From contig DATJQI010000078.1 in the NCBI GenBank assembly GCA_035505915.1, forward strand, positions 3,158-67,157: a stretch of DNA of 64,000 nt, written 5' to 3'. The notes under the pieces were generated by a model that was not told the origin of the DNA, made no database searches, and worked only from the letters and a program-made list of their open reading frames with translations. How positions within the stretch are numbered: position 1 is the stretch's first letter; the number at the start of each line of letters is the position of its first letter. Positions 499 to 21,516 of this stretch are shown in pieces. The translations under genes and the position numbers were made by a program. Source of the DNA: Gemmatimonadales bacterium. Lineage in GTDB: Bacteria > Gemmatimonadota > Gemmatimonadetes > Gemmatimonadales > GWC2-71-9.

Positions 499-3459
499 AT
501 GACCGCGCGCGGGAAGCGCCCGAAATCCAAGGCCGCCAAGAAGGCCAAGACGGCCAGGACGGCCAGGACGGCCAAGACGCCCCGTAGCCGCGCGTCCGGG
601 GCACGCCCGCCGGCGCCGATTGCCGAAGGGGGCGCGGCGGTCTCCCTCCTCACCGCCACCCTCGAGTCGACCGCCGACGGCATTCTGGTGGTGAACCGCA
701 CCGGCGCGGTGTCCACGTACAACCGGCGCTTCCTCGAGATGTGGCGCATCCCGCCGGAAGTGGCGTCCTCCCGGAACGACGACCAGCTGATCGCGTTCGT
801 GCTGGATCAGATCGCCGATCCGAACGCCTTCCTCTCGAAGGTGATGGAGCTGTACGCGCGGCCCGAGGCGGAGAGCCAGGACGCCATCCGCTTCAAGGAT
901 GGCCGGGTCTTCGATCGCTTCTCCCGCCCGCAGCGCATCGGCGACCAGGTCGTGGGCCGGGTGTGGAGTTTCCGGGATGTCTCGGATGTGCGCCGGGCCG
1001 AGGAGGAGCTGCGGCGGAACGAAGAGCGGTTCCGCGCGCTGGTGGAGAACAGCTCGGATGTGATCCTGCTGCTGCGGCGGGACGGGACCATCCAGTACTC
1101 CACCGCCGCGGCCTTCCCCATCCTGGGCTACGCGCCCAACGAGAACCTGGACCGGTCCATCTTCGAGCTGATCCACCCGGTCGATCAGGAGGGCGTCCGG
1201 CGCAAGTTCGGCGAGCTGATCCAGCGCCCCGGACACACCATTCATCTCGAATGCCGGGCCCGCCGGAAAGACGGCGAGTACGGGTATCTCGAGGCGGTGG
1301 GGGTCAACCGGCTGGACGATCCCTCCGTCGAGGCGATCATCGTCACCACCCGCGACATCTCCGACCGGAAGCGGGCCGAGCGGGTGCAGCAGGCGACCTA
1401 CCGGATCGCCGAGGCGGCCTCGGTCGAGCGGTCGCTCGAGGACCTCCTGCGGGCCATTCACAGCATCGTCGGTGAGCTGATGCCCGCCGACAACTTTTAC
1501 GTCGCGCTCCTCGAGCCCGACGGGGAGCGGGTGAGCTTCCCCTACTTCGTCGACCGCTTCGACGAAGCGTTCGAGCCGCTCCCCCTCGGCCGCAACCTGA
1601 CCTCGTACGTGATCCGGACGGGGCAGTCCCTCCTCGCGACCCCTGAGGTGTTCGAGGACATGGTGCGGCGCGGGGACGTGGACGAGGTCGGCGCGCCGTC
1701 CATCGACTGGCTCGGCGTCCCCCTCACGCTCGAGCACCGGACCATCGGTGTCGTCACGGTGCAGACCTACTCGGAGGGGGTCCGCCTCTCGGAGTCCGAC
1801 AAGGACATCCTGACCTTCGTGTCGGCCCAGATCGCGCGGGCGGTGGAACGGCGCGGGGCGCAGGACGCGCTGCGGCAGGCGGAGGAGCGCTACCGCGCCT
1901 TCGTGACGCAGTCGACGGAGGCGATCTGGCGGGTGGAGCTCGACCACCCGATTCCGGTCGACCTCCCCGAGGAGGCCCAGGTGGACCGCCTCTACCGGGA
2001 CGCCTATCTGGCCGAATGCAACGACGCCATGGTGCACATGTACGGGTTCGACTCGGTGGGCCAGGCCATCGGCGCCCGGCTGGGCGACTTCATCATCCAG
2101 GAACACGCGTGGAATCGCGAGACCTGGGGCACGTTCGTCCGGAACGGGTACCGCCTGTCCGACGTGGAGTCCTTCGAGCGGGACCGCTCGGGAGCCCACA
2201 AGACGTTCCTCAATAACCGGGTCGGCATCGTCGACGGGCGCCACCTGCGCCGGATCTGGGGCACCCAGCGCGACGTCACCGCGCAGCGGCACCTGGAAGA
2301 CCAGCTGCGGCAGGCCCAGAAGATGGAAGCGGTCGGCCGCCTCGCCGGCGGGATCGCCCACGACTTCAACAACATTCTGACCGCCATCCTGGGCACCTGC
2401 TCCCTGATGCAGCGCGAGCTGTCGCCGGGCTCCCGGGCCCGGGAAGACGTGGACGAAATCCAGCGGGCCGCCACGCGCGCGGCGGGCCTGACCCGGCAAC
2501 TGCTGGCCTACTCGCGGCGCCAGGTGCTTCAACCCGAAGTGCTCGATCTCAACGTCGTGGTGGGCGAAATGGACCGGATGCTGCGGCGCCTGATCGGTGA
2601 GGACGTCGAGCTGGTGACGGTGCTCGGGAAAGACCTGGGCCGGGTGCTGGCGGACCCGGGACAGATCGAGCAGGTGGTGCTGAACCTGGCGGTGAACGCC
2701 CGGGACGCGATGCCCCGGGGTGGCCGGCTGACCATCGAGACAGCCGACGCCCCCGGCGACCCCGCCGGAACCCCGCAAGGCAGCTCCTCTCCCCGGGTGA
2801 TGCTCGCGATCTCCGATACGGGCGTCGGCATGGACGACCGCGTGCGGTCGCACCTCTTCGAGCCGTTCTTCACCACCAAGGAAGTCGGCAAGGGCACGGG
2901 GCTCGGCCTCGCCACGGTGTACGGCATCGTCCGCCAGAGCGGCGGCGCCATCACGGTGGACTCCGCGCCCGGTCGGGGCAGCACGTTCCGGGTCTACCTC
3001 CCCCGCGTGGAGGAAGCGAGCTTCCGACGCCCGTCCCAGGGGGCCCCGGAGGGCGGGGCCCGCGAAGGAGGGTCCCCTCAGCCCCCGGCGGCGCACATCC
3101 TGCTCGCCGAGGACGAGCCGCGGGTGCGGGCGTTGACCCAACGCGTGCTGGAGGCCCGGGGCTACCGCGTGCTCGCCGCCACCGACGGCGCGAAGGCGTT
3201 GGAGCTCGCGTCGGACCAGTCCGTGAAGGTGGACCTGCTCGTGACCGACGTCGTCATGCCGGGGATGAGCGGTCCGGATCTCGCGCGCCGCCTGCGCGAG
3301 TCCCGCCCCGGTCTCCCCGTGGTATACATGTCGGGGTACGCCGACCAGGGGCTGGCGCACGAGGCGGCCGCCACCGGAGGCGCGTTCCTCTCCAAACCGT
3401 TCGAGACCGAGGCGCTCGAGCGCCTGGTGCAGCAGGCGCTCGAACGCCGTCCGCACTGA
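499..3459 (+). CDS. Soluble multi-PAS/GAF hybrid sensor histidine kinase with C-terminal receiver
   Basis: 986 aa. PAS-like and GAF-like blocks, H-box [13 protein letters not shown], ATPase motifs DTGVGM and [15 protein letters not shown], receiver LLAEDEP...[14 protein letters not shown]...SKPF. No TM helix seen. Basic Lys/Ala/Arg N-terminal tail. Confidence 0.85.
544..579 (+). repeat. 4 x 9-bp in-frame tandem repeat (GCCAAGACG / GCCAGGACG)
   Basis: Read directly: gccaagacg gccaggacg gccaggacg gccaagacg. Encodes [12 protein letters not shown] in the kinase N-terminus. Confidence 0.9.
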
Positions 3460-10165: not shown

Positions 10166-11497
10166 TTACCGCGCCGCCGCTCGCGCCTCGGCCGTGAGGT
10201 CCCGGGTGCCGATGTCCACGCCCGCCTGCTCCAGAATCTCGGTGGCGGCGATGCTCCCCGCGAACACCCAGACGTACTCCGCCGGCACCTCGCGGCTCGT
10301 CCCCTGAACTTCGAGCACCACCCGGGTCTGCTCTATCCGCCGGGGAGTGGAATTGAAGACCACGTCGATCTGCCCTGCCCGCATCGCCTTGGTGATCCGC
10401 TGGTCGTTCCGCCCCTTGAGCCGGCTGAACGCCTCCTTGCGGTAGGACAGGGTCACGCGGTTTCCCGGCTGATAGGCCAGCCCCAGGGCCGCTTCCACGG
10501 CGCTGTCGCCCCCACCCACGACCAGGATCCGGGCCTCCCGATAGGCCTCGGCATCCAGCAGGCTGTACATGACGTGGGGAAGGTTCTCCCCCGGAATGCC
10601 GAGCTTCCGGGGGGTGCCGCGGCGTCCGAGGGCGAGCACCACGGACCGCGAGCGGCAGGACCGTTTGGCGGTGCGCACGGTGAAGTGCCCGTCGGCGTCC
10701 CGCGTGACCGCCTCCACGCGCTCCCCGGCATACACGGTGAGGCCCGTCTCCCGGTGGAGCTTCTCCCAGAACCGCAGGAGCTCTTCCTTGGAGATGGCGA
10801 GCTTCTTGAAGCTTCCGTACATCGGGAATTCGACCGGGCTGGTCAGCACCAGCTTCTGGCGGGGGTACTTGGCGACGGTGCCGCCCAGCTCCTCCTGCTC
10901 GAAGGTCGCGTAGGTCAGCTTACGCTCGACGGCCCGGAGCGAGGCGCTGATGCCGCCGGGGCCCGCCCCGACGACGCACACGTCGCGCACGGCGGGATCG
11001 CGGGTCGGGCCGGCCCGGCGGAGGCGCTCGAAGATCACGTCCACCGCGTCCCGGCCCTGGTTGACGGCGTTCTTGATGAGCGCCAGGCCCCCCAGTTCCC
11101 CGACCACGAAGAGCATCGGCACGCTGGTCTCATACTCCGCCGTCAGACGGGGCAGCCCCGCCGTGATGCCCGGCGGCGCCGTCACGATCTCGATGGCGCC
11201 CACCGGGCAGGCATCCGCGCACAGCCCGTGGCCGATGCACTTCGCCGCGTTGATGATGGCGGCCTTGCCACCGACGAGGCCCAGCACTTCCCCCTCCGGA
11301 CAGACGGTCACGCACGCGCCGCACCCGATGCACCGCGACACGTCGATGTGGGGATGCTGGCCGGGACCCACGTCGGTGGCCCCGGATTCCGCGGCGGCGA
11401 GCGCCCGCCGCTCACCCCGCTTCATTTTCCGGTACTGACGGACGACGGAAATGAGCACGAGCGCGATGAAGAGCGCGTACACCAGGGTCGAATCCAT
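10166..11497 (-). CDS. Membrane-anchored 2x[4Fe-4S] ferredoxin-domain / FAD-NAD(P) (TrxB-like) oxidoreductase
   Basis: N-terminal TM helix. CIGCGACVTVCP and CIGHGLCADACP clusters. Dinucleotide fold VCVVGAGPGGISASL and ILVVGGGDSAVEAA. Start taken at ATG 11497 (GAAGGA upstream); the longest ORF would start at 11584. Confidence 0.8.
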   Translation of the reverse strand: MDSTLVYALFIALVLISVVRQYRKMKRGERRALAAAESGATDVGPGQHPHIDVSRCIGCGACVTVCPEGEVLGLVGGKAAIINAAKCIGHGLCADACPVGAIEIVTAPPGITAGLPRLTAEYETSVPMLFVVGELGGLALIKNAVNQGRDAVDVIFERLRRAGPTRDPAVRDVCVVGAGPGGISASLRAVERKLTYATFEQEELGGTVAKYPRQKLVLTSPVEFPMYGSFKKLAISKEELLRFWEKLHRETGLTVYAGERVEAVTRDADGHFTVRTAKRSCRSRSVVLALGRRGTPRKLGIPGENLPHVMYSLLDAEAYREARILVVGGGDSAVEAALGLAYQPGNRVTLSYRKEAFSRLKGRNDQRITKAMRAGQIDVVFNSTPRRIEQTRVVLEVQGTSREVPAEYVWVFAGSIAATEILEQAGVDIGTRDLTAEARAAAR

Positions 11498-11631
11498 CAG
11501 CCCGGGCCGTCCTTCACGATTGCCTCCAGGATTTTTCGCCCGACCCGACCCGTCGTGAGGCAGGTCACGGCGGGTCGCACGCACGGGCGGCTTCGTTACC
11601 CCTTGCTACGCGCTCACCGTTTTCGGACAAT

Positions 11632-11652
11632 TCCAGACAATAGCAAACTGGA
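11632..11652. promoter_or_regulatory. Perfect dyad TCCAG-N11-CTGGA in the divergent control region (candidate regulator operator)
   Basis: Read directly. Overlaps a direct repeat GACAAT-N4-GACAAT (11626-11641). Confidence 0.35.
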
Positions 11653-11698
11653 TTGGATCCTGCCCGAATCGGATGAGCCGAAGTCACGCGAGGGTGCT

Positions 11699-12664
11699 AT
11701 GCCGCAGACCGCCACCCCCGCCCCGGTCCGACCGTCTCCGCCTCTGTCTCCGCCGCGCGCCCCGGCGGCGCGCGGCCGGGCCAGCGGAATCAAGCCCCAG
11801 CGCTCGTCCCGCGGGCGCGGACTCCTCTTGACCCTCGTGGTCATCCTGGGAGCCGTCGCCGTGTGGGGGGCGCCGTACTACGCCCTCCCCCTCGAGGAGC
11901 GGGTGCGGAGTCCCATGCACCCGTGGCTCCGGCCCTCCGGGTACGTCGGACAGAGTGCGGGCATCGCCTCGCTCCTGGTCATGCTGTTCCTCTGGGTGTA
12001 TCCGCTCCGCAAGCGGTGGCGCTGGCTCGGCTTCACCGGGTCGCTCGCCGCGTGGCTCGATGTCCACGTCGTCGTGGCCCTCGTGCTACCCCTCTTGGTC
12101 GCGATTCACTCGGCGTGGCGCTTCGACGGACTCATCGGCCTGGGCGTCCTCTCGATGATGATCGTCTGGGCGAGCGGCGTCGTGGGTCGCTATCTGTACG
12201 TGCGGATCCCGCGCGGGAAGGCCGGGATCGAGCTCTCCCGCGAGGAGATCGCGACGCAGCGGAAGGAGCTGATCGGCGAGATCGCGGCGCGCGTCCGTCT
12301 CGATGCGGAGGCGACGGCCGCGACGCTGTCCCAGGCCAGCGCCTCACCGCGCGCGGTGGGGCTCGTAGCGGCGGTCCGGCAGATGTTCCGGGATCGGCGC
12401 GCCCGCCGGGACGCCCTGCGGCACCTCGAGCGTCTGCTCACCAAGGAGACCTCGCCGCGCCCCACGCGATCGGAGGTCCGGGAGGTCCTGTCGCTGGCGG
12501 AAGCCGAGATGCGGCTGGCGCAGCAGGCCAGTCTCCTCGACGCGACTCAGCAGCTGTTCCGCCTGTGGCATGTGCTCCACCGGCCCGTCGCGCTGGCCGC
12601 GCTCCTCGCGGTCACCATTCACGTCGCGGTGGTCGTCGCCCTGGGCGCCACCTGGTTCCGGTGA
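11699..12664 (+). CDS. Integral membrane protein with conserved intramembrane histidines (cytochrome-b-like candidate)
   Basis: Only the last 321 codons of track ORF 10142-12664 are used (ATG 11699). About 5 TM helices. His pairs in helices (LDVHVVVALVLPLLVAIH; LWHVLHRPVALAALLAVTIHV). About 130-aa charged cytoplasmic insert. Confidence 0.6.
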   Translation: MPQTATPAPVRPSPPLSPPRAPAARGRASGIKPQRSSRGRGLLLTLVVILGAVAVWGAPYYALPLEERVRSPMHPWLRPSGYVGQSAGIASLLVMLFLWVYPLRKRWRWLGFTGSLAAWLDVHVVVALVLPLLVAIHSAWRFDGLIGLGVLSMMIVWASGVVGRYLYVRIPRGKAGIELSREEIATQRKELIGEIAARVRLDAEATAATLSQASASPRAVGLVAAVRQMFRDRRARRDALRHLERLLTKETSPRPTRSEVREVLSLAEAEMRLAQQASLLDATQQLFRLWHVLHRPVALAALLAVTIHVAVVVALGATWFR

Positions 12665-14376
12665 CCCGTGCTCCCGCCGGACTGGTCGCGCTCCTTCTCG
12701 GGATCGCCGTGATGCCCGCGCCCGCACGCCGCCTGACGGCTCAGATCTCCCCGGGCCCCCTGGCCCAGCCACACGCCGCTCTGGAGGGCGTGCGGAACTG
12801 CGTCGGGTGCCACGGCACCAAGAAGGAAGAAATGCCGGCGCGCTGTCTCCAATGCCACCGGGACGTCGCCTGGCTCGTGGACCGCGGCCGGGGTTACCAC
12901 GCGTCGGTGACAGGCCAGCGCTGCGCGGCCTGCCACCCCGACCACGCGGGGAGCGATTTCCAGTTGATCAGCTGGCCGGGACGAGATTCCTCGGCGTTCG
13001 ACCACTCGCGGACCGGGTGGCCGCTGGCGGGGAAGCACGCCGGCGTGTCCTGCGACGCGTGTCACCGGATGACCTTCCGGGTTTCCCCGGCCGCCGCGCT
13101 CTCGCAGCGGAAGACCACGCCGGGATGGATGGGGCTCGAGCGCGACTGCGCCGGATGCCACGGTGATCCGCACCGCGGCACGCTGGGGGCGGGGTGCGCT
13201 GACTGCCACGACGTCGACGGCTGGCGCCCGGCCGCGGGCTTCGATCACGACAGCACCGGCTATCCCCTCACCGGGAAGCACCGGACCGTCGCGTGCGCCG
13301 ATTGCCATGCCGGGGCGCCCGTGTCCGCGGGCAGAGCCGGCGCGCCCGTCGTCCCCGCGGTGTTCAGCCCCCTGCCTCACGCCGACTGCGCGGCCTGCCA
13401 CCGCGACCCGCACGGCGGACGCCTGGGCAGTACGTGCTCCCGCTGTCACACGACGGCGGGGTTCTCGTCGTTCGCGACGGCCACCTTCGATCACGAGCAC
13501 ACCCGGTACCCGCTCCGGGGCGCTCACCTGTCGGTCCGCTGCGACCAGTGCCACGACTTCCGTCCGGCCGCGGCGCACCGGGACCGTCCCTTCGCCACCT
13601 GCGGGGCCTGTCACACCGACCCGCACGCGGGCCGCGCCACGCTCGCCGGGCAGGCCGCCGACTGCGCGGACTGCCACACCGTGGCGGGCTTCACGCCGGC
13701 GACCTATACCGTCGCCCGGCACGCGACGACCCGGTTCCCGCTCCTGGGGCGCCACCAGACCGTGTCCTGCGGCTCCTGTCACGTGCGCGATCACGACCCG
13801 GCCAAGCGCGCGGCGCTCGGGACCGCGGCGGTGCAGATGCGGCCGTCCACGGCGTGCGTCGACTGCCACCAGGATCCCCATCAAGGACGAGTGGCCGCGC
13901 TGGGCGACTGCGCGTCCTGCCACGCCCTGACCGGGTTCCGACCGTCGACTGTCGACGTCGCCGCCCACGCCCGGTACCGCTTCATTCTCACCGGCGCCCA
14001 CCGCGCCACGCCCTGCGCGGCCTGCCACCGAGACCTGACGCGGCCGGGTGTCCGGCCCCTGCTGTTCGGCGCGGCCGGCACGAGCTGCCGGGACTGTCAC
14101 CAGGATCCGCACGGCGGCCAGTTCGCCGATTCGACCGGAGGCCGCGCGGCCGCCACCTGCGACCACTGCCACGTCACGGACGGATTCCGACCGGCCCCGC
14201 TCTTCGACCACGACCGCGACACGCGATTTCCCCTCACCGGAGGGCACACCGGCGTGTCGTGCGAGCGCTGTCATCGCGTCGCCCCGGGTACGGCGGGCCG
14301 CGGCGTGACGCGGTATCGCGGGACGGCCACTGCGTGCGAGGCCTGTCACACCGGGACGCCCCGGAGGGGTCGGTGA
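12661..14376 (+). CDS. Multihaem cytochrome c, 20 CxxCH motifs
   Basis: GTG start in a GTGA overlap. Signal peptide. I count 20 CxxCH. Repeating unit CxxCH-DPH-G-x-LG-x-C-x-x-CH...FDH..T.YPLTGKH...C..CH (doubled-CXXCH / c3-type). Confidence 0.85.
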   Translation: MTRAPAGLVALLLGIAVMPAPARRLTAQISPGPLAQPHAALEGVRNCVGCHGTKKEEMPARCLQCHRDVAWLVDRGRGYHASVTGQRCAACHPDHAGSDFQLISWPGRDSSAFDHSRTGWPLAGKHAGVSCDACHRMTFRVSPAAALSQRKTTPGWMGLERDCAGCHGDPHRGTLGAGCADCHDVDGWRPAAGFDHDSTGYPLTGKHRTVACADCHAGAPVSAGRAGAPVVPAVFSPLPHADCAACHRDPHGGRLGSTCSRCHTTAGFSSFATATFDHEHTRYPLRGAHLSVRCDQCHDFRPAAAHRDRPFATCGACHTDPHAGRATLAGQAADCADCHTVAGFTPATYTVARHATTRFPLLGRHQTVSCGSCHVRDHDPAKRAALGTAAVQMRPSTACVDCHQDPHQGRVAALGDCASCHALTGFRPSTVDVAAHARYRFILTGAHRATPCAACHRDLTRPGVRPLLFGAAGTSCRDCHQDPHGGQFADSTGGRAAATCDHCHVTDGFRPAPLFDHDRDTRFPLTGGHTGVSCERCHRVAPGTAGRGVTRYRGTATACEACHTGTPRRGR

Positions 14377-15623
14377 GGCGCTCGTGGTTCGCCGTCTTGG
14401 TGGTCCTGGTGACCCGGGCCGCCGTGGCGCAGGATTCGACCGCCAACCCGCACGGGCCGCTCCGCATTCCCTGCGCGGAGTGCCACAGCTCCGCCAGCTG
14501 GCGCCCCGCGAAGATCTCCGCCGACTTCAACCACGCGAAGCTGGGGTTCCCGCTGGTCGGCGCCCACGTCCAGGCATCGTGCCGCTCCTGCCACGCCCAG
14601 CTGAGCTTCCAGGGGACTCCCCGTCAGTGCGCGGCCTGCCATACGGACCCGCACCGGGGCGAGCTGGGAACGGGATGTGAGCGCTGTCATACGTCGCGCT
14701 CGTTCATCGACCGGTCGCTCCTGGTGTCGGCGCACCAGCTCACGGCGTTTCCGCTGACCGGCGCGCACCTGGCGGCCGATTGTGAGAGCTGCCACCTGCC
14801 GGGGGTCCAAGGGAAGATGACATTCGTGGGCGTCCCGGCCGATTGCTACAACTGTCACCGGCAGAACTTCGCGACGGCCACGAACCCCGACCACGGCGGC
14901 TTCCCGACCAACTGCGTGGAGTGCCACAGCACCGCCACCTGGCTGGGCGCCAACTTCAATCACCAGGCCACCCGGTTCCCGCTGACCGGAGCCCACCTCG
15001 CCGTGGCCTGCAACGTGTGTCACGCGGACAAGGTGTACGCCGGCAAGAGCACGGCCTGCGCCAGCTGTCACCAGACCGACTACAACACCACCACCGATCC
15101 GGCCCACGTTCCGGCGCAGCTCGCGTCGGACTGCAGCCAGTGCCACACGACGGTGAGCTGGGCCGGGGCGACGTTCAATCATTCGACGACGAAGTTCCCG
15201 CTCACCGGGGCCCACATTCCGCTCGACTGCAACCAGTGCCACGGCGACAACGTGTACGCGGGCAAGGGCACGACCTGCGTCACCTGCCACCTCACCGACT
15301 ACAACACCACGACGAATCCCCAGCATCAGGCGGCCCAGTTCCCCACCGACTGTGTCGCCTGCCACACCACGGTCACGTGGAGCGGGGCCACCTTCAATCA
15401 CGACGGTCCGTACTTCCCCATCTATTCGGGGACCCACCAGGGTAAATGGACGGCGTGCACCGACTGCCACACGAACCCGGCGGATTTCAGCACCTTCACC
15501 TGCATCGCGTGCCACGCGCATTCGAACCAGACCCAGGTGGATTCGGACCACAAGAGCGTCAAGAACTACGTGTACGACAGCAACGCGTGCTATCAGTGCC
15601 ACCGGAACGGGAGCGCCGGCTGA
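14373..15623 (+). CDS. Multihaem cytochrome c, 16 CxxCH motifs
   Basis: GTG start in a GTGA overlap. Signal peptide VRRSWFAVLVVLVTRAAVAQ. I count 16 CxxCH. Three tandem tri-haem modules of about 73 aa. Confidence 0.85.
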   Translation: MRRSWFAVLVVLVTRAAVAQDSTANPHGPLRIPCAECHSSASWRPAKISADFNHAKLGFPLVGAHVQASCRSCHAQLSFQGTPRQCAACHTDPHRGELGTGCERCHTSRSFIDRSLLVSAHQLTAFPLTGAHLAADCESCHLPGVQGKMTFVGVPADCYNCHRQNFATATNPDHGGFPTNCVECHSTATWLGANFNHQATRFPLTGAHLAVACNVCHADKVYAGKSTACASCHQTDYNTTTDPAHVPAQLASDCSQCHTTVSWAGATFNHSTTKFPLTGAHIPLDCNQCHGDNVYAGKGTTCVTCHLTDYNTTTNPQHQAAQFPTDCVACHTTVTWSGATFNHDGPYFPIYSGTHQGKWTACTDCHTNPADFSTFTCIACHAHSNQTQVDSDHKSVKNYVYDSNACYQCHRNGSAG

Positions 15624-17173
15624 GCTGGCGCGCCTGCCGGGCCGCGGGCCTGGGGCTCGTCCTGCCCGGACTGCTGGCCGCGCAAACCCGGGACTCGGCC
15701 TTCCGGTACGCACGCATCACCTACCTCACCATCACCACCGCATATGTGAACGCGGGCCGCGACGACGGCCTGCGGGATTCCACCCGCCTCGACGTGATCC
15801 GGTCCGGGAAGCGCGTGGGGACGATCCGCATTTCGTTCCTGGCCTCTCACCAGGCCGCGGGTGACATCGTCGACACCGTCTCGGCCCTGGTCGTCGGCGA
15901 TTCCGCCCGATACTTACCGGTCGCGGCTCCCCCCACCCGCGTCGCCACGGGCCCGGGGCGCACGTACTCCCGGAGTCGGGGCTCGTCGCTCTACGGAACC
16001 GTGGGAGTCGAGTATTTCTCGGTAACGGGGGACGGCGTCCGTCTGTCCCAGCCGGGGCTGGACGTGCGGGCGTTCGGTGGGCCGGCCGGGTCGCCGCTGT
16101 CCATCGGGCTCGATCTCCGGGAGCGCCGAGTGACCACCGCCGCGGCGGGATCCCCGACCGCCGTGGCGGACGAATCGCGCGTGTACCAGGCGGTGGCGCG
16201 GTGGCAGACGCCCGGCTCTCCGGTGCGCGTCGGAATCGGACGGCAGTTCGTGGACGGGATGCCCGCCGTGGGGCTCATCGACGGGCTGCAGATCGAGCGC
16301 GCGGGGCCCGAGTGGAGCACCGGCGCGTTCGCGGGCACCCAGCCCGGCCTGGCCGACCTCGAGGTGTCCGGCGACATCCGCGAGCTGGGTGCCTACGTCC
16401 GCCGTCAAGGGCGGCCGGCCGCGGGCGGCTTCTGGTCGGTCACCGCCGGGGCCAGCGGGTCGTACCAGGGGTGGCGGACAAATCGCGAGTTCTTCTACTT
16501 CGAGGCGAGGTACTTCGGGCCGCGGCTGTCCGGATTTCTCTCCCAGGAAGTCGACTACTACCGCCCGTGGAAGCGGATCGCCGGCCAGTCGGCGTTCTCC
16601 CCCACGGCGACATTCGGCGACGTGCGATACCAGGTCTCACGGGCCTGGAGCCTCGAGGGAGGGGTCGACGAGCGCCGGAATGTCGTGCTCTTCCAGGATG
16701 CCGTGAGTCCGGAAAGCACCTTCGACGCGGCGTTCCGGCGGGGCGCCTGGCTGGGCACCACCATCCGGCCCGGCCCCCACCTTCTGGTGGACCTCGACGC
16801 GCGCGCGTCGGACGGCGGGTCGATCGGGCGCACCGACTCCTATACGGGCGCCCTCGCCCTCGAGCGTCTCGGCGCACTGGGCGGGGCGTTCCGGTTCCGG
16901 GGCACCCGGTACCTGAGCCCGGGCCGGACCGGCTGGCTCGGCGCCGTGAATGTCGGCATCGCCCCGGCCGACCGCTGGCGATTGGCGGTGGACGCCGGTC
17001 AGCGTCAGGAATCGGTGACGATTCTTCCGGGAACGCAGGTGACGCGATGGGCGGGCGTGGACTTCGATCTCAGCCTCGCCCGGGAGTGGTTCGGCACGGT
17101 ATCATTCACCAGACAGCGGGGCGCACTGCAGGACACCGACCAGCTGTTCCTGCTCTTCACGTATCGGTTCTGA
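15587..17173 (+). CDS. Predicted outer-membrane beta-barrel protein
   Basis: Signal-like RRLSWRACRAAGLGLVLPGLLAAQ. Gly/Tyr/Arg-rich alternating pattern. C-terminal LFLLFTYRF (aromatic terminal residue). Start uncertain: GTG 15587, GTG 15596, or CTG 15620 in a CTGA overlap with the upstream stop. Confidence 0.6.
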   Translation: MLSVPPERERRLSWRACRAAGLGLVLPGLLAAQTRDSAFRYARITYLTITTAYVNAGRDDGLRDSTRLDVIRSGKRVGTIRISFLASHQAAGDIVDTVSALVVGDSARYLPVAAPPTRVATGPGRTYSRSRGSSLYGTVGVEYFSVTGDGVRLSQPGLDVRAFGGPAGSPLSIGLDLRERRVTTAAAGSPTAVADESRVYQAVARWQTPGSPVRVGIGRQFVDGMPAVGLIDGLQIERAGPEWSTGAFAGTQPGLADLEVSGDIRELGAYVRRQGRPAAGGFWSVTAGASGSYQGWRTNREFFYFEARYFGPRLSGFLSQEVDYYRPWKRIAGQSAFSPTATFGDVRYQVSRAWSLEGGVDERRNVVLFQDAVSPESTFDAAFRRGAWLGTTIRPGPHLLVDLDARASDGGSIGRTDSYTGALALERLGALGGAFRFRGTRYLSPGRTGWLGAVNVGIAPADRWRLAVDAGQRQESVTILPGTQVTRWAGVDFDLSLAREWFGTVSFTRQRGALQDTDQLFLLFTYRF

Positions 17174-19094
17174 TCCGCGATCCGCGGACGCCCTGCCGGC
17201 GCGCGCTCCCTCCCGCGCCCCGCGCCATCCGCCGGAACGACTCCAACACCGACCGCACCGTCAGGCTCGGCTCCGCGCGCCGCCGCAGGAGGTTGAGTCC
17301 CCAGGGGAGATCGAAGCCGACCAGCGGCATCGCGACGGTGCCGGCGGGAGGACGGCGGCGGTGCGACCGGAAGCCCAGGCACCACCCCTTGCCGTGCGCC
17401 ACCATCGCCCAGACCGCCTGCAAACCGTCATAGGTCCCCTCGATGCGCGGGGTCAGCCCGAGCTCCTGCAGCCGATCCAGCACCCGGTCGTAGAAGGCGG
17501 GATGGAAGGACCGTGCCATGAACAGGAACGGCTCGTGGGCGAGCTCCGCGGGCTTCACCCGACGCCGCCGGGCCAAGGGGTGGCCCGGCGCCAGGAGAAC
17601 CGTCTGCAATCGATCGTGGTGAACGGGCTCGGCGATCAAGTCGGCGTACACGGCTCCGGGATAGGCGTGCGCCAGGCCCAGATCGATGTCCCCGCGGACG
17701 ATGGCCCGCGCCTGCAGGGGCGTGGCGACCTCCTCGATCGCGATGTGGACGTGCGGGTGGCGTGCCGCGCAATCGGCCAGGACGGCGGTGAGGAGCTCGC
17801 CGGTGGCGGCGGTGGCGACCGCCCCGATGGCGCAATGCCCTTCCATGCCGCGCCGCGCCCGGGTGGTATCGAGGACGATCTGCTCCAGCGCGGTCAAGAG
17901 GCCGGGGCATTCTCCGGCCAGGGAGCTCCCCGCAGGCGTCAGGAGCACGCCGCGGGCCGAGCGCTCGAGGAGCGGCACACCGACGGCGACCTCCAACTCG
18001 CGCAACTGTCGGGACAAGGCCGGCTGGGTGACGCCGAGGCGCTCGGCGGCCCGGCCGATGGTCTGGGACGCGGCGACTTCGAGCAAGGCCCGGAGGTGGC
18101 GAATCTCGATCACCGGCGGCACCCCCCCTGGGAGGGCTTGGCCCGGCGCGGATGGGTGCGGGGCCGGCGGGAGCCGGGGCTCGCGCCCCACCAGGGAGTC
18201 GGGACGCGCACGGACGACGTCGAAGATCCGTTGCAATACCCGTCGGACCACGGGCCGCCGTTCCTCCCGCCGCCAGAGGGCGGCCGCGCGCACCACGGGA
18301 GCGCCGTCCGCGAGGGGCACCACCGCGGTTCCCTGCGGCGGCGAGACGGAACGGGCCCGGCCGATGAGCGACCACCCGCGCCCGGCCGACACGGCCAGGT
18401 GGCCGTCCCGCAATCCGGCGTCGATCACCAGAAGGGGTGACCGCAGGCCGCCGCGCCGCAACGCGACCATGATCTGGTCGAGTGAGGCGGCGGAGAGCGC
18501 CCGCTGTGGAATGACCAGGGGATACTCCCCGAGATCCGCGATGCGCAGGCGCCGGTGGGACGCCAGCGGGTGGCCGAGCGACAGGATCACGTGATCGAGA
18601 TGCTCGTCCCAGAGGGGCTCGGCGACCAGGCCGACCACCTCCGGCGTGGCCATGGCCAGCGCGACGTCGATGGTGCCCACCTGCAGCTGCTCCAACACGT
18701 CGGGGGGATCGAGATCCTGCACCACCAGCGTGATCTCGGGATCCTCGCGACGGAGCACGTCTTCGACGGCCGCGGGCACGCCCGCGGCGATCACCGTCAA
18801 CATGGCGCCGAGGATCACACGTCCCCGCTGTCCCTGCGCGGTGGCCCGCGACCGCTCGAGCGCGAACCCCAGCGCGGCCAGCACGCCGGCGGCGCCGCGG
18901 GCGAACGCCTCCCCCGCCAGGGTGGGGACCACGCCCTTGGAATGTCGGTCGAGGAGGGGGACGCCAAGGTCGCGTTCCAGCTCGCGGATCTGGCGGGAGA
19001 GGGCGGGCTGGGCCACGCGCAAACGGGCGGCGGCGCGGGAGAGACTCCGCGCTTCGGCAATGCCGACGAAGGTCCGCAGATCTCGCAGGTACAT
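17157..19094 (-). CDS. Tandem-fused LysR-type transcriptional regulator (two complete HTH plus effector-domain units in one ORF)
   Basis: Unit 1: MYLRDLRTFVGIAEARSLSRAAARLRVAQPALSRQIRELE... Unit 2: IEIRHLRALLEVAASQTIGRAAERLGVTQPALSRQLRELE... The units are joined by a Pro-rich linker of about 33 aa with no stop. An internal GTG at 18113 could also start unit 2 alone. Confidence 0.75.
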   Translation of the reverse strand: MYLRDLRTFVGIAEARSLSRAAARLRVAQPALSRQIRELERDLGVPLLDRHSKGVVPTLAGEAFARGAAGVLAALGFALERSRATAQGQRGRVILGAMLTVIAAGVPAAVEDVLRREDPEITLVVQDLDPPDVLEQLQVGTIDVALAMATPEVVGLVAEPLWDEHLDHVILSLGHPLASHRRLRIADLGEYPLVIPQRALSAASLDQIMVALRRGGLRSPLLVIDAGLRDGHLAVSAGRGWSLIGRARSVSPPQGTAVVPLADGAPVVRAAALWRREERRPVVRRVLQRIFDVVRARPDSLVGREPRLPPAPHPSAPGQALPGGVPPVIEIRHLRALLEVAASQTIGRAAERLGVTQPALSRQLRELEVAVGVPLLERSARGVLLTPAGSSLAGECPGLLTALEQIVLDTTRARRGMEGHCAIGAVATAATGELLTAVLADCAARHPHVHIAIEEVATPLQARAIVRGDIDLGLAHAYPGAVYADLIAEPVHHDRLQTVLLAPGHPLARRRRVKPAELAHEPFLFMARSFHPAFYDRVLDRLQELGLTPRIEGTYDGLQAVWAMVAHGKGWCLGFRSHRRRPPAGTVAMPLVGFDLPWGLNLLRRRAEPSLTVRSVLESFRRMARGAGGSARRQGVRGSRIRTDT

Positions 19095-19225
19095 CCCCGT
19101 CCCCCGCCATGCGTCTACGGCATCGAACTCCAAGCGGATCGGCATTTCAGTCCCGGCATCCGCCCGACTACGATCCGATGCGATCGCTGGCTGTGAACCC
19201 GAAGGCGTGGAGTGACCATACGGTG

Positions 19226-19858
19226 ATGGAATCCGAACCGCTAGAGGCCGCGCAGCCGAAGCTGCACCTCGAGGCGCTGCGGGCGGTGGCCCAGACCGCC
19301 AGCCGGGCCGCGGCCGGCGGCATGACCCGGGCCCTCCGCCGCCGGGTCACCGTGGCCGTTCCCGAGTTCGCGCTCGCGCGGGCGGACCAGCTTCCCGCCG
19401 TCTTGGGCCATGGAGATCAGCCGGTCGTAGCCGTGTCGGTGCAGTTCCTGGGCGATCTGTCCGGTTCCCTCCTCTGGATCATGGCCTCGGCCGATGCCCG
19501 ACGGATGGGCGGGGCCCTTCTCGACCAGCCAGACACATCGGCGCCACCGGGGGACGAGGAGATACGGGCCGTCTTGATGAAGGGCGTTCACATCATGGCC
19601 GCCGCGTACGCCGAGGTCCTCTCTTCGCTCACGACCGGCGTCGTGTTCCTGTCCGTGCCTGAGCTGACGGTCGGGTCCGCGAGCGTCGTCCTGTCTCATA
19701 CGCCCGGCCCCGGGCTCCCCGGCCACCGACCACGGCCGAGCATTTGTGTGGGATCCCGCCTGAGCTTCGACGATCGGGGGGTCGTCGCGATGGGGCACGT
19801 CGTGCTGATGCCGCATCACCCGGCCTTCGACCGCATTCTCCGCGCCCTGCCCGCGTGA
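19226..19858 (+). CDS. CheC/CheX-like domain protein (degenerate motifs)
   Basis: Two internally similar halves: LEALRAVAQTASRAAAGGMTRAL...VPE and EEIRAVLMKGVHIMAAAYAEVLSSL...VPE. They resemble the E-x2-N...P repeats of CheC, with Asn replaced. Start at ATG 19226 (GGAG upstream). Confidence 0.35.
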   Translation: MESEPLEAAQPKLHLEALRAVAQTASRAAAGGMTRALRRRVTVAVPEFALARADQLPAVLGHGDQPVVAVSVQFLGDLSGSLLWIMASADARRMGGALLDQPDTSAPPGDEEIRAVLMKGVHIMAAAYAEVLSSLTTGVVFLSVPELTVGSASVVLSHTPGPGLPGHRPRPSICVGSRLSFDDRGVVAMGHVVLMPHHPAFDRILRALPA

Positions 19859-21516
19859 TGGGCGATCTCACCGCCTCCTCCCGCCCCGCGGGGGTCCGCG
19901 CGCGCGCACAGATGGCCATCGCCGCCGTGCGCCGGTGGCTGGCTCCGCGTGGCGGGTCGGGGTCGGCCGCGAACGGGGTCTCGGAAGTGCGGTACGGGGC
20001 GGCGTTCGAGCAGGTGGCGATCGGGCTCGCCGAGGTCGCCCTGGACGGCCGCATGCTGCGGGTCAACCGGTATCTGTGCGAGCGCCTGGGATACACCGCC
20101 GACGAGCTGCGCTCCCGCAACGTGCTGGATCTCACCCACCCCGACGACCTGGAGGAGACCCGGAGTTATCTCCGGGAGGCGCCGACCTGGGAGAAGGCCT
20201 ACCGCCGGGAGAAGCGCTATCTCCGGAAGGACGGGACGTGCCTCTGGACGCAGCTCACCGCCTGCGTCGTGCAGCCCCCCGACGCCGGGCCGAAATTCTT
20301 CATCGCCGTCATCGAAGATCTGTCGGAGCGGAAGCGGCTCGAGGCCCAGCTGCTGCACGCCCAGAAGCTCGAGGCGGTGGGTCAGCTCGCGGGGGGTGTG
20401 GCGCACGATTTCTCAAATCTCATCGGGGCGATCATGGGGTACGCGCAGCTCGTCGAGCGCTCCCTGGCGATCGAGGATCCGCGCCGCGCGGATGTCGCCG
20501 AGATACGGCGGGCCGGGCAGCGCGCGGCCTCCCTCATTCACCAGCTACTCACGTTCGCCCGGCGGCAGGAGACTCAACCGCAGCTCGCCGACCCCAACCT
20601 GCTGCTCCGGAACGTGGAACGGCTGGTGACGCGCGTACTGGGGAGCGACGTCCGGCTCGACTGGAACCTGGCCGCCGGGCTTCCCGCCATCCGGGTCGAC
20701 GCCGGGCAGTTCGAGCAAGTGATCCTGAACCTCGCCATCAACGCCCGGGACGCGATGCCGGAAGGCGGGACGCTCACCGTCGAGACCTCGGTGGTGGACG
20801 TGGATCGTGGCCACATCAGCCGCCACCAGGGTGCCCGACTGGGACCGCACGTCGTGGTCACCGTGAGCGACACCGGGACCGGCATGGCGCCGGACGTACT
20901 GGCGCGCGTATTCGAGCCGTTCTTCACCACCAAGGGTCCGGACAAAGGCACCGGTCTCGGCCTCGCGATCTGCTACGGCATCGTCAAGCAAGCCGGCGGC
21001 AATGTCTGGGTCTACTCGGAGCCGGGCCGCGGAACCACGTTCCGGCTGTACTTTCCCGCGATCCGTGAGCCGGTGGGCGACGCGCCGCCGGTCGAGGCCG
21101 ACGAAGAGCTCCCCCGGGGGGACGAGACCATCCTCGTGGTCGAAGACGATCCGCAGATGCGGGAGCTGGCGGCCCGGGTCCTCGTGGATTGCGGATACGC
21201 CGTGCGTGCCGTTTCCAGCGCGGAGGCGGCCCTGCGGGACTGGGAAACCCCGCGGCGGCCTGATCTCCTGCTCACGGACCTGGTGATGCCTGGAATGAAT
21301 GGATTCCGCCTGGCGCGGGACCTGCGGGCCCGCTGCCCGGAGCTTCCGGTCCTCTGTATGACCGGCCAGTCGGACCGGGTCGCCAGACGGCGCCGGGAGG
21401 AGGGGCTCTTTCCCCTGCTTCCCAAGCCGTTCACCGCGCTGGCCCTGGCCCGCGCGGTTCGCGCGTGTCTGGACCGGCAGGCGCTCCCTGATCCGTTGAT
21501 CGGCGATGGCTTATGA
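19858..21516 (+). CDS. PAS-domain hybrid histidine kinase with receiver
   Basis: TGATG overlap with the upstream gene. PAS block, H-box [34 protein letters not shown], receiver ILVVEDDP...DLLLTDLVMPGMNG...PKPF. Confidence 0.85.
   Translation: MGDLTASSRPAGVRARAQMAIAAVRRWLAPRGGSGSAANGVSEVRYGAAFEQVAIGLAEVALDGRMLRVNRYLCERLGYTADELRSRNVLDLTHPDDLEETRSYLREAPTWEKAYRREKRYLRKDGTCLWTQLTACVVQPPDAGPKFFIAVIEDLSERKRLEAQLLHAQKLEAVGQLAGGVAHDFSNLIGAIMGYAQLVERSLAIEDPRRADVAEIRRAGQRAASLIHQLLTFARRQETQPQLADPNLLLRNVERLVTRVLGSDVRLDWNLAAGLPAIRVDAGQFEQVILNLAINARDAMPEGGTLTVETSVVDVDRGHISRHQGARLGPHVVVTVSDTGTGMAPDVLARVFEPFFTTKGPDKGTGLGLAICYGIVKQAGGNVWVYSEPGRGTTFRLYFPAIREPVGDAPPVEADEELPRGDETILVVEDDPQMRELAARVLVDCGYAVRAVSSAEAALRDWETPRRPDLLLTDLVMPGMNGFRLARDLRARCPELPVLCMTGQSDRVARRRREEGLFPLLPKPFTALALARAVRACLDRQALPDPLIGDGL

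Follow-up and report, generated by a model that had tools for sequence, protein, structure and literature searches.

Can five adjoining genes of a Gemmatimonadales bacterium, an uncultured one from soil, carry electrons from the cytoplasm, across both membranes, to the outside of the cell, and if so, from which donor? The question is raised by a locus at positions 10166-17173 of a 64-kb window (the whole stretch of DNA that was analysed; its G+C content is about 70% and its close relatives carry a Gemmatimonadales label). The locus encodes an iron-sulfur (FeS) flavoprotein with a membrane anchor (A), an inner-membrane protein (B), two secreted multihaem cytochromes c (C and D) and a predicted outer-membrane protein (E). 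A preliminary description, made from the sequence alone, had seen in these genes a parallel to the porin-cytochrome conduits of extracellular electron transfer. The feature is real, well conserved and not a product of chance, and the parallel is supported by the parts list, by the barrel predicted for E and by the occurrence of the five genes together in at least three phyla. We lean towards the view that the five genes make up one trans-envelope electron conduit of the predicted porin-cytochrome type PCC3, with an entry module on the cytoplasmic, NAD(P)H side.

The positions of the genes are given in Table 1. B to E had been described as a chain joined by GTGA, GTGA and a further overlap, and so they are: the GTGA overlap is present at both the B/C and the C/D junction, and E most likely starts at GTG 15596, which gives an overlap of 28 nt with D and agrees with a public gene call (P0001, 525 aa). 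A is divergent from B, and promoters for both directions are presumed to lie in the intergenic region. The open reading frame (ORF) of A reaches further, to GTG 11584 (10166-11584), and ATG 11497 is the more likely start because homologues measure 440-460 aa.

The cytochromes are the most conspicuous part of the locus. C contains exactly 20 CxxCH motifs and D exactly 16, the numbers of the preliminary description, and every cysteine of the two proteins (40 in C and 32 in D) lies within these motifs. C has 25 spare histidines and D has 17, numbers that would suffice for bis-His ligation of every haem. Out of the 38 CxxCH motifs in the six frames of the whole window, 36 are found in the ORFs of C and D, a concentration far beyond chance. 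C has 28.6 aa per haem and consists of c7-type trihaem repeats with a period of about 81 aa, while D has 26 aa per haem and c7-type repeats with a period of about 73 aa. Pfam Cytochrome_C7 matches C at 4.5e-29 in five stretches and D at 4e-19, and there is a weak match to TIGR04257. Both proteins begin with ordinary signal peptides (that of D ends in ...AVAQ, followed by Asp), with no lipobox Cys and no Cys before the first haem motif. A sequence search of the PDB gave no relatives of C or D. Orthology to DmsE/MtrA, Hmc, Qrc or Ext proteins, which the preliminary description had left as a possible objection in the form of a known respiratory complex, was rejected, since all NCBIfam matches are far below the cut-offs: the DmsE/MtrA decahaem model (TIGR03508) scores 39.5 bits for C and 20.3 for D (cut-off 192.2), QrcA (NF041781) 30.5 (cut-off 180), HmcA (NF045713) 16 (cut-off 400), and ExtN and ExtO 22.8 and 21.6 (cut-off 200). 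By these scores C and D are not orthologues of the cytochromes of any named respiratory complex.

B had been noticed as a polytopic protein with paired intramembrane histidines. Its AlphaFold2 model (predicted local distance difference test, pLDDT, 76) has five long transmembrane (TM) helices, with a helical insert of about 115 residues between TM4 and TM5 that is predicted to be cytoplasmic. The signature motifs are W119-x3-H123-x13-H137 on TM3, S159GVVG on TM4 and W290-x3-H294-x13-H308 on TM5, so that the pairs H123/H137 and H294/H308 have i, i+14 spacing. Across 38 homologues H74, H123, H137, H291, H294 and H308 are invariant, and a periplasmic loop with R68, R70, H74, W76, Y82 and Q85 is conserved. 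His pairs stacked across two helices are the classic arrangement for two bis-His haems b. B is thus predicted to be a dihaem cytochrome b with two stacked bis-His haems, and by topology H123 and H294 would lie towards the cytoplasm, H137 and H308 towards the periplasm. B has no match in Pfam, in NCBIfam or by profile search of the PDB, and Foldseek against the PDB gave nothing at E<0.6; the assignment as a cytochrome b therefore draws on motifs and topology only. Three homologues of about 330 aa (P0083, P0102, P0134) bear the Joint Genome Institute (JGI) name 'dihydropyrimidine dehydrogenase (NAD+) subunit PreT', which was probably transferred from the adjoining A-type gene.

That adjoining gene is of interest for the electron donor. 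A starts with a TM helix, and because this helix precedes a cluster of positive residues (Arg/Lys), most of the protein should lie in the cytoplasm by the positive-inside rule. Export of A by the Tat pathway was considered and rejected: the RR is encoded ahead of the likely start, some 25 residues away from the helix with which homologues begin; A is therefore taken as cytoplasmic. After the TM helix come CIGCGACVTVCP, CIGHGLCADACP and then a thioredoxin reductase (TrxR)-like domain for flavin adenine dinucleotide (FAD) and NAD(P)H. Pfam finds Fer4 families, Pyr_redox_3 at 3.4e-38 and also Pyr_redox_2. The two-Rossmann domain carries GAGPGG and GGGDSA and has no CxxC outside the FeS motifs, hence no redox CxxC. 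The best PDB relatives are YpdA/Bdr (7a7b, 5.7e-20) and the TrxR-type ferredoxin-NADP reductases 3ab1 (1.5e-14), 2zbw and 3lzw. With a YpdA equivalog score of 149 (cut-off 339.9), A is classed by its matches as a member of the TrxR-like ferredoxin-NADP reductase/YpdA superfamily and not as a YpdA equivalog. Because of these relatives, the two glycine motifs and the lack of a redox CxxC, it looks like an NAD(P)H:ferredoxin-type oxidoreductase with its own ferredoxin fused to it.

The membrane anchor, two FeS motifs and flavin fold of A agree with what was first described, with one correction: the second FeS motif (residues 87-98 of the 443-aa protein) is CxxHxxCxxxCP and not a canonical four-Cys motif. 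The His that replaces the second Cys is invariant in 56/56 homologues, and it is kept in Emticicia and Aquirufa, where the first FeS motif has Ser or Gly at the second-Cys position. The pattern suggests a His-ligated [4Fe-4S] or a [3Fe-4S] cluster.

E, described at first as a protein of about 520 aa with barrel-like composition, has a signal-peptide-like N-terminus and a C-terminal beta-signal (...FTYRF), of which YRF is nearly invariant (R524/F525 in 30 homologues). The preliminary description had allowed that it might not be a barrel; AlphaFold2 and Foldseek both give an outer-membrane barrel. In the AlphaFold2 model (mean pLDDT 79), DSSP counts 22 strands in residues 132-524, and a small periplasmic beta domain occupies residues ~37-106. 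The model of E is accordingly that of an outer-membrane barrel with 22 predicted strands. Foldseek likens it to generic barrels of the outer membrane only (PapC/FimD ushers, OprD/Occ, AlgE), at a probability of 1.0 and TM-scores of 0.3-0.4. There is no Pfam match at E<=0.1 for E, none for its small N-terminal beta domain, and no sequence relative in the PDB. Homologues of 650-800 aa (P0014, P0015, P0019, P0021, P0028, P0162 and others) owe their length to a duplicated N-terminal beta domain and a Pro/Ala-rich linker; they were considered as Cyc2-like fused cytochrome-porins, a candidate that was rejected as they have no CxxCH.

With profiles of these proteins, we were able to ask how far the five genes travel together. 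Searched against 1.84 billion representatives, the E profile finds 2640 clusters at 50% identity (E<=1e-3), and 777 of these clusters reach E<=1e-30. The B family is larger than that of E, with 1020 matches to the B of the window and 7331/8000 scored candidates with Emticicia B; >7000 database entries (clusters at 90% identity) match the membrane protein. B, E and the family as a whole are without a Pfam or NCBIfam model. We then surveyed 78 species-level genome loci, all from metagenome-assembled genomes (MAGs), in which six-frame ORFs were scanned with the B and E profiles, with A and by haem-motif counts; 57 of these loci had enough upstream sequence to be informative. The 78 loci come for the most part from Gemmatimonadales, several from Acidobacteriota and one from a MAG labelled Candidatus Binatia.

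Such a co-occurrence survey had been proposed at the outset as a check, and it shows that the module is strongly conserved: B is kept in 56/57 informative loci and A in 52/57. In 44 loci A and B are transcribed divergently, and in another 8 A comes after B on the same strand. The description of A as a divergent neighbour thus stands for its orientation in the window and falls short for its role, since A is kept across loci, phyla and gene orders and is therefore a true member of the module, not a chance neighbour. Almost all related loci have 20 or 23 haems in their first cytochrome, the haem number at the position of D is variable (12-43 in the genome loci), and the E homologue lies directly 3' of a multihaem cytochrome gene. 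Twelve loci have extra pairs of a cytochrome, typically with 13 haems, and an E paralogue.

Some loci are more elaborate. A second module directly 3' of the first, sometimes with a second B, is seen in L009, L013, L016, L018, L019, L023, L024, L026, L054, L066 and L079 (L002 and L004 are also listed with one), and the window has none. About ten Gemmatimonadales loci (L028, L048, L055, L057-L059, L062, L065, L071, L083) have an extra 16-haem cytochrome gene on the plus strand 5' of A, on the side where the window has an aminotransferase gene instead. The second cytochrome can be a giant: in an Acidobacteriota MAG (L043, 4029-10046) a stop-free stretch holds 62 CxxCH, possibly at least two genes read together.

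The module is also found in a cultured organism. A tblastn search against plasmids found it whole on plasmid pEMTOL02 (100 kb) of Emticicia oligotrophica DSM 17448, the only other match in that search being Spirosoma for the cytochrome. The order there is ccsA (of the fused ccsBA type), B (281 aa), A (440 aa), 23-haem and 40-haem cytochromes, and E (538 aa). A of the window is 38% identical to its counterpart (1e-108), B 32%, with the same WX3HX13H and SGXXG motifs, and C 33% to the 23-haem protein (1e-108). D aligns at 41.5% identity with a C-terminal stretch of 378 aa in the 40-haem protein, and E matches Emticicia E by profile at 8e-37. Aquirufa sp. TARAVU-A1A has the Emticicia arrangement with 23- and 37-haem cytochromes, and the order common to Bacteroidota is B-A-cyt23-cytN-E, with B and A abutting. 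A Saprospiraceae MAG (L087) has B-A-cytochrome-E, with one giant cytochrome of 1724 aa (14044-19218) and a third cytochrome gene, and no adjoining maturation gene. Cytochrome c maturation genes do adjoin the module elsewhere (ccsBA in Emticicia and Aquirufa, ccmEFH in L005 and L006). The five genes are one conserved unit, present in at least three phyla and in two gene orders. So far as sequence alone can say, none of the three objections that the preliminary description raised against itself holds, namely an E that is no barrel, cytochromes of a known respiratory complex, and genes that are not co-transcribed.

In Emticicia the module is followed by a gene for a GW-domain protein, and Aquirufa (L086) has the same layout from ccsBA to GW on a 238-kb contig. 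Upstream of the Emticicia module, the opposite strand encodes an extracytoplasmic function (ECF) sigma factor, a beta-barrel protein, a Rieske protein, a DUF5777 barrel and YceI.

How new is such a system? He et al. (2017, PMC5566968) predicted PCC3 clusters in Proteobacteria, iron oxidisers among them. Each comprises a porin, for which 22 strands are predicted in Leptothrix cholodnii, a periplasmic cytochrome whose median haem count is 21, a haem-variable 'extracellular' cytochrome, and an inner-membrane protein with a signature that PCC4 shares. This protein measures about 300 aa and has five TM helices, of which TM3 and TM5 carry WX3HX13H and TM4 carries SGXXG (PMC5566968); He et al. likened it to a ferric reductase domain (PMC5566968). 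Haem counts in Gallionellaceae are 21, 24 or 27 for the periplasmic PCC3 cytochrome and 10-35 for the other one (Hoover et al. 2023, PMC10734462). PCC3 is known from bioinformatic prediction alone (PMC10734462).

The likeness to our locus is close. The four-part list is the same and the signature of B is identical; the conserved repeat cytochrome of about or above 20 haems has 21, 24 or 27 haems there and 20 or 23 here, at about 26-29 aa per haem; the second cytochrome varies from 10 to 85 haems there and from 12 to 43 here; and the barrel has 22 strands, predicted for L. cholodnii and modelled for E. Of the traits by which PCC3 is recognised, we find a barrel gene that overlaps a multihaem gene, a repeat cytochrome of about 20 haems with a low ratio of amino acids to haem, the inner-membrane signature and a second cytochrome of variable haem number, which in our locus has a plain signal peptide and no lipobox. 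The differences are also clear. No flavoprotein partner has been described for PCC3, which was modelled as quinone-linked. In Sideroxydans lithotrophicus ES-1 the list runs extracellular cytochrome, porin, periplasmic cytochrome and membrane protein, whereas our locus ends with the barrel. Haem numbers follow 3n in PCC3 and 3n+2 in our locus, the trihaem repeat of Leptothrix (Leptothrix cholodnii SP-6) measures about 69 aa and that of C is longer, and the hosts are Proteobacteria in one case and Gemmatimonadota, Acidobacteriota and Bacteroidota in the other. Among the top 120 matches listed in the search with Emticicia B there are only Bacteroidota, with no bridge to proteobacterial PCC3. The locus is best filed as a variant of the predicted PCC3 type, a filing that goes by the published description of parts and motifs; the likeness may be homology or analogy.

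PCC4 has a membrane protein with the same signature and, like our locus, no extracellular lipoprotein cytochrome. In its subgroup II the gene of an Fe-S protein lies directly 5' of the membrane-protein gene, once annotated as fused to it, among other redox genes (PMC5566968). PCC4 differs in its three small periplasmic cytochromes (4, 5 and 10 haems) and its Fer4_11-type FeS protein, and it has neither giant haem wires nor a ferredoxin-flavoprotein fusion. The preliminary description held that subunit sizes, haem counts and inner-membrane partner set the locus apart from described systems; this has to be withdrawn in so far as predicted PCC3 and PCC4 share the parts list and the signature of B. 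The locus is less unprecedented than was thought, and still uncharacterised. We found no paper that links PCC3 to Gemmatimonadota, or multihaem cytochromes to Emticicia or Saprospiraceae, and a 2026 cave metagenome paper reports a ferredoxin-NADP+ reductase gene near 7/11 porin-cytochrome clusters of one type (PMC13264449). What is new is the obligate pairing of A and B as the conserved core, the invariant CxxHxxCxxxCP of A and the putative split NOX/FRE-like entry, which is probably independent of quinone, together with the gene order, the 3n+2 haem counts, the breadth and host range of the family, and its cultured and plasmid-borne examples.

MtrCAB, MtoAB and PioAB work on the same principle of a multihaem cytochrome insulated in an outer-membrane barrel (MtrAB structure, PMC7198977), but E has no match to the MtrB/PioB Pfam families, there is no MtrC-like lipoprotein, and the entry is not of the CymA type. 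The Geobacter Pcc and Ext systems (OmaB-OmbB-OmcB, ExtABCD) also combine a barrel with a periplasmic multihaem cytochrome, and C and D are polymers of c7-type trihaem units like the 'nanowire' cytochrome GSU1996; here, however, there is no outer lipoprotein cytochrome, and the entry is unlike ImcH and CbcL. Hmc and Qrc connect a 16-haem periplasmic cytochrome via a membrane cytochrome b to a cytoplasmic FeS protein, yet these complexes have no outer-membrane barrel and our locus has no NrfD-type subunit. The porin-cytochrome clusters of Verrucomicrobia (PMC5615132) were set aside as a different system, based on an 8-haem cytochrome. With the ferric reductase domain (NOX, FRE/FRO, MsrQ-Fre; PF01794) A and B share the logic of NAD(P)H, flavin and two stacked haems b, as well as His pairs on TM3 and TM5 with 13-residue spacing. 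Unlike these proteins, B has five TM helices instead of six and no PF01794 or Foldseek match, the flavoprotein is a separate, TrxR-like one with two FeS clusters and not of the ferredoxin-NADP reductase (FNR) fold, and the output would go to cytochrome c wires. B may be functionally like the ferric reductase family, yet it is not a detectable member. As judged by family matches, the locus does not belong to the MtrAB/PioAB, Geobacter Pcc/Ext, Hmc/Qrc or Pfam ferric-reductase families.

From gene content, motifs, the predicted barrel and the conservation of the module, we infer a route for the electrons, and with it the cofactor loading, the protein contacts, the location of D, the direction of flow and the physiological acceptor. 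A, anchored at the cytoplasmic face by its one TM helix, would accept electrons from NAD(P)H at its FAD, and its two FeS clusters would relay them. The second, His-bearing cluster may mark the exit, by analogy with [NiFe]-hydrogenases, where the distal cluster is His-ligated. In B, the electrons would pass from the cytoplasmic-side haem b (H123 + H294) to the periplasmic-side haem b (H137 + H308), and from there to the 20-haem wire C, which would cross the periplasm. C would hand them on to D, the wire of 16 haems, which would be inserted into the 22-strand barrel E or pass right through it, in the manner of MtrA in MtrB. From D they would go to an extracellular acceptor; candidates are oxides of Fe(III) or Mn(IV), humic quinones and perhaps O2. 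Since MtrA has 10 haems over ~8 nm and the c7-type dodecahaem GSU1996 has 12 haems over ~12 nm, 36 haems could by analogy span ~30 nm, enough for the periplasm and the outer membrane. The recurrent gene pairs of a cytochrome followed by a barrel would fit a cytochrome-in-barrel unit like MtrAB, and so would the 16-haem C-terminal part that appears, from the alignment of D with its longer counterpart, to be the conserved core of the second cytochrome. A and B together would be a split ferric reductase or NOX, passing electrons from NAD(P)H through flavin to two stacked haems b, and extended by haem wires because the cell has two membranes. Such a route would bypass the quinone pool and dissipate reducing power with no energy conservation by itself; it might be used for redox balancing, with reducing power discharged onto extracellular Fe(III)/Mn(IV) minerals or humics, or for reductive mobilisation of iron from them. 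More tentatively, as a possibility that we would not yet rate as the probable one, A and B could constitute a quinone-independent inner-membrane entry, not recognised before, that feeds giant haem wires through a new barrel family and is widespread in heterotrophs, most of them aerobic.

The source of the electrons is the point on which the strongest alternative differs. Most characterised pathways of extracellular electron transfer enter via quinol dehydrogenases such as CymA, ImcH and CbcL. B could accordingly be a cytochrome b-type quinol oxidase or quinone reductase of a quinone-coupled PCC3, as published for membrane proteins with the same WX3HX13H/SGXXG signature (PMC5566968), with A accessory or unrelated (for example, in repair or poising), and the conserved periplasmic loop of B could be a quinone or docking site. 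We regard this as unlikely: it is hard to explain why A stands beside B in so many loci, in two orders and several phyla and abutting it in Bacteroidota, while the cytoplasmic insert of B suits docking of a cytoplasmic protein and B matches no quinone-binding family in Pfam.

For the direction of flow, energetics favour the conduit as an exit from NAD(P)H. At about -320 mV, NAD(P)H makes electron export downhill, with the membrane potential helping, and import to NAD(P)+ through a plain dihaem b is uphill on both counts. The module has no subunit coupled to the proton motive force, and an outward, quinone-independent route is therefore favoured. An inward flow, from extracellular Fe(II), Mn(II), minerals or reduced humics through A to a cytoplasmic acceptor, a direction hypothesised for the PCC3 of iron oxidisers, seems to us quite improbable. 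PCC3 is found in Fe(II) oxidisers (PMC5566968), its inner-membrane component was up-regulated in Sideroxydans CL21 during iron oxidation, and Mtr-type conduits can be reversible (PMC10734462); but electrons entering through a simple dihaem b would move against the membrane potential, the step from Fe(II) to NAD(P)+ would be strongly uphill with nothing in the module to drive it, and most MAGs with porin-cytochrome clusters are without carbon fixation and are probably electron-exporting heterotrophs (PMC13264449). Least probable of all is that C and D stay in the periplasm, where they would store electrons or reduce a soluble substrate for which E is the entry channel: their plain signal peptides, the match of E to the substrate channels OprD/Occ and AlgE as good as to anything, and described clusters of cytochrome and membrane protein with no porin (PMC5566968) all agree with it, but it would leave unexplained why E is translationally coupled to D, lies next to a multihaem gene in relatives and is duplicated together with a 13-haem cytochrome in twelve loci, why its 22 strands exceed the 16-18 of typical substrate porins, and why there are 36 haems, more than a periplasmic reductase would need.

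Several points weigh against the conduit with an NAD(P)H-side entry that we favour. The membrane part of the B model is only of moderate confidence (pLDDT 56-72), B is without a detectable sequence or fold relative among known cytochromes b or ferric reductase domain proteins, and a quinone site in B is possible. E matches generic barrels only, with MtrB absent from the top 50 Foldseek matches. That D sits in or beyond the barrel is a guess, since its signal peptide is of the ordinary kind and it lacks a lipobox. A is missing in 5/57 informative loci, 4/5 of which keep B, although some of the A-less loci may be cut by contig ends. For every member of the family, as for PCC3 itself, the conduit is a prediction. 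Many of the hosts (Aquirufa, Emticicia, Gemmatimonadales) are aerobic heterotrophs and, to our knowledge, not known for metal respiration.

We note some features of the surroundings. Between A and B there is no sigma-70-like site, and terminator-like sites in the scan are not above shuffled expectation; for this host phylum, the sigma-70/terminator scan is uninformative. A candidate sigma-54 promoter about 36 nt 5' of the B start (TGGATTGGATCCTGC, TGG-N9-TGC at 11649-11663, with -24/-12 spacing of the sigma-54 type) was rejected, as it is not conserved: a similar motif occurs upstream of B in 6/61 related loci, against a background of 16%. Convergent with E, and overlapping its 3' end by 17 nt, is a 662-aa ORF that consists of two complete tandem LysR units (two HTH_1 and two LysR_substrate domains); it may be a regulator of the cluster or unrelated. 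Two hybrid PAS(/GAF)-histidine kinase-receiver proteins are encoded in the window, one of them just 3' of E. Three related loci (L001, L002 and L003) also have sigma-54 activators or two-component genes close to the cluster, the activators being those of L001 and L003. In L001, a single distant relative, genes for E, F and G of a type II secretion system (1-2694) lie beyond the sigma-54 activator that adjoins the cluster; they could be relevant to surface export of cytochromes, in this one locus.

Table 1. Features of the locus, its surroundings and the module of a cultured organism (positions refer to the window unless an accession is given)
Feature	Positions	Strand	Basis or remark
A, FeS-flavoprotein with membrane anchor	10166-11497	minus	443 aa from ATG 11497
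A/B divergent intergenic region	11498-11698	none	about 200 bp; presumed promoters
B, inner-membrane protein, 321 aa	11699-12664	plus	five predicted TM helices, His pairs
C, secreted cytochrome c, 571 aa, 20 CxxCH	12661-14376	plus	motif count, Pfam Cytochrome_C7
D, secreted cytochrome c, 416 aa, 16 CxxCH	14373-15623	plus	motif count, Pfam Cytochrome_C7
E, predicted outer-membrane protein, 525 aa	15596-17173	plus	AlphaFold2 barrel model, C-terminal FTYRF
Tandem-LysR ORF	17157-19145	minus	two HTH_1, two LysR_substrate
Hybrid PAS(/GAF)-histidine kinase-receiver protein	19744-21516	plus	just 3' of E
Hybrid PAS(/GAF)-histidine kinase-receiver protein	499-3459	plus	
Flanking genes: class IV aminotransferase, LysM/SLT transglycosylases, DNA polymerase III delta-prime-like gene, SRP54			ordinary, unrelated
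Further flanking genes: prepilin peptidase, nucleoside transporter, 5'-nucleotidase, Ppx			ordinary, unrelated
Emticicia locus with the module (L085)	NC_018749.1 78197-90781	module on one strand	module EMTOL_RS21090-21110

Experiments have established porin-cytochrome conduits in no more than a few model organisms that reduce or oxidise metals. Clusters of the PCC3 type, with their giant cytochromes, are predictions so far, and the locus described here belongs to a very large family with no Pfam or NCBIfam model. Several of its host phyla are frequent in soil, fresh water and activated sludge, and they do not count as electroactive. As the five-gene module of Emticicia oligotrophica DSM 17448 is plasmid-borne and lies beside a maturation gene, it can be tested in a cultured organism. 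If A and B do link NAD(P)H directly to the haem wires, the module would be a new exit for cytoplasmic electrons that is free of the quinone pool, widespread in soil and freshwater Gemmatimonadota, Acidobacteriota and Bacteroidota (Aquirufa, Emticicia, Saprospiraceae). It would give these bacteria a large and so far unrecognised capacity for reducing iron, manganese, humics or oxygen at the cell surface, with a bearing on redox balancing, iron acquisition, humic and manganese cycling, and bioelectrochemical engineering.

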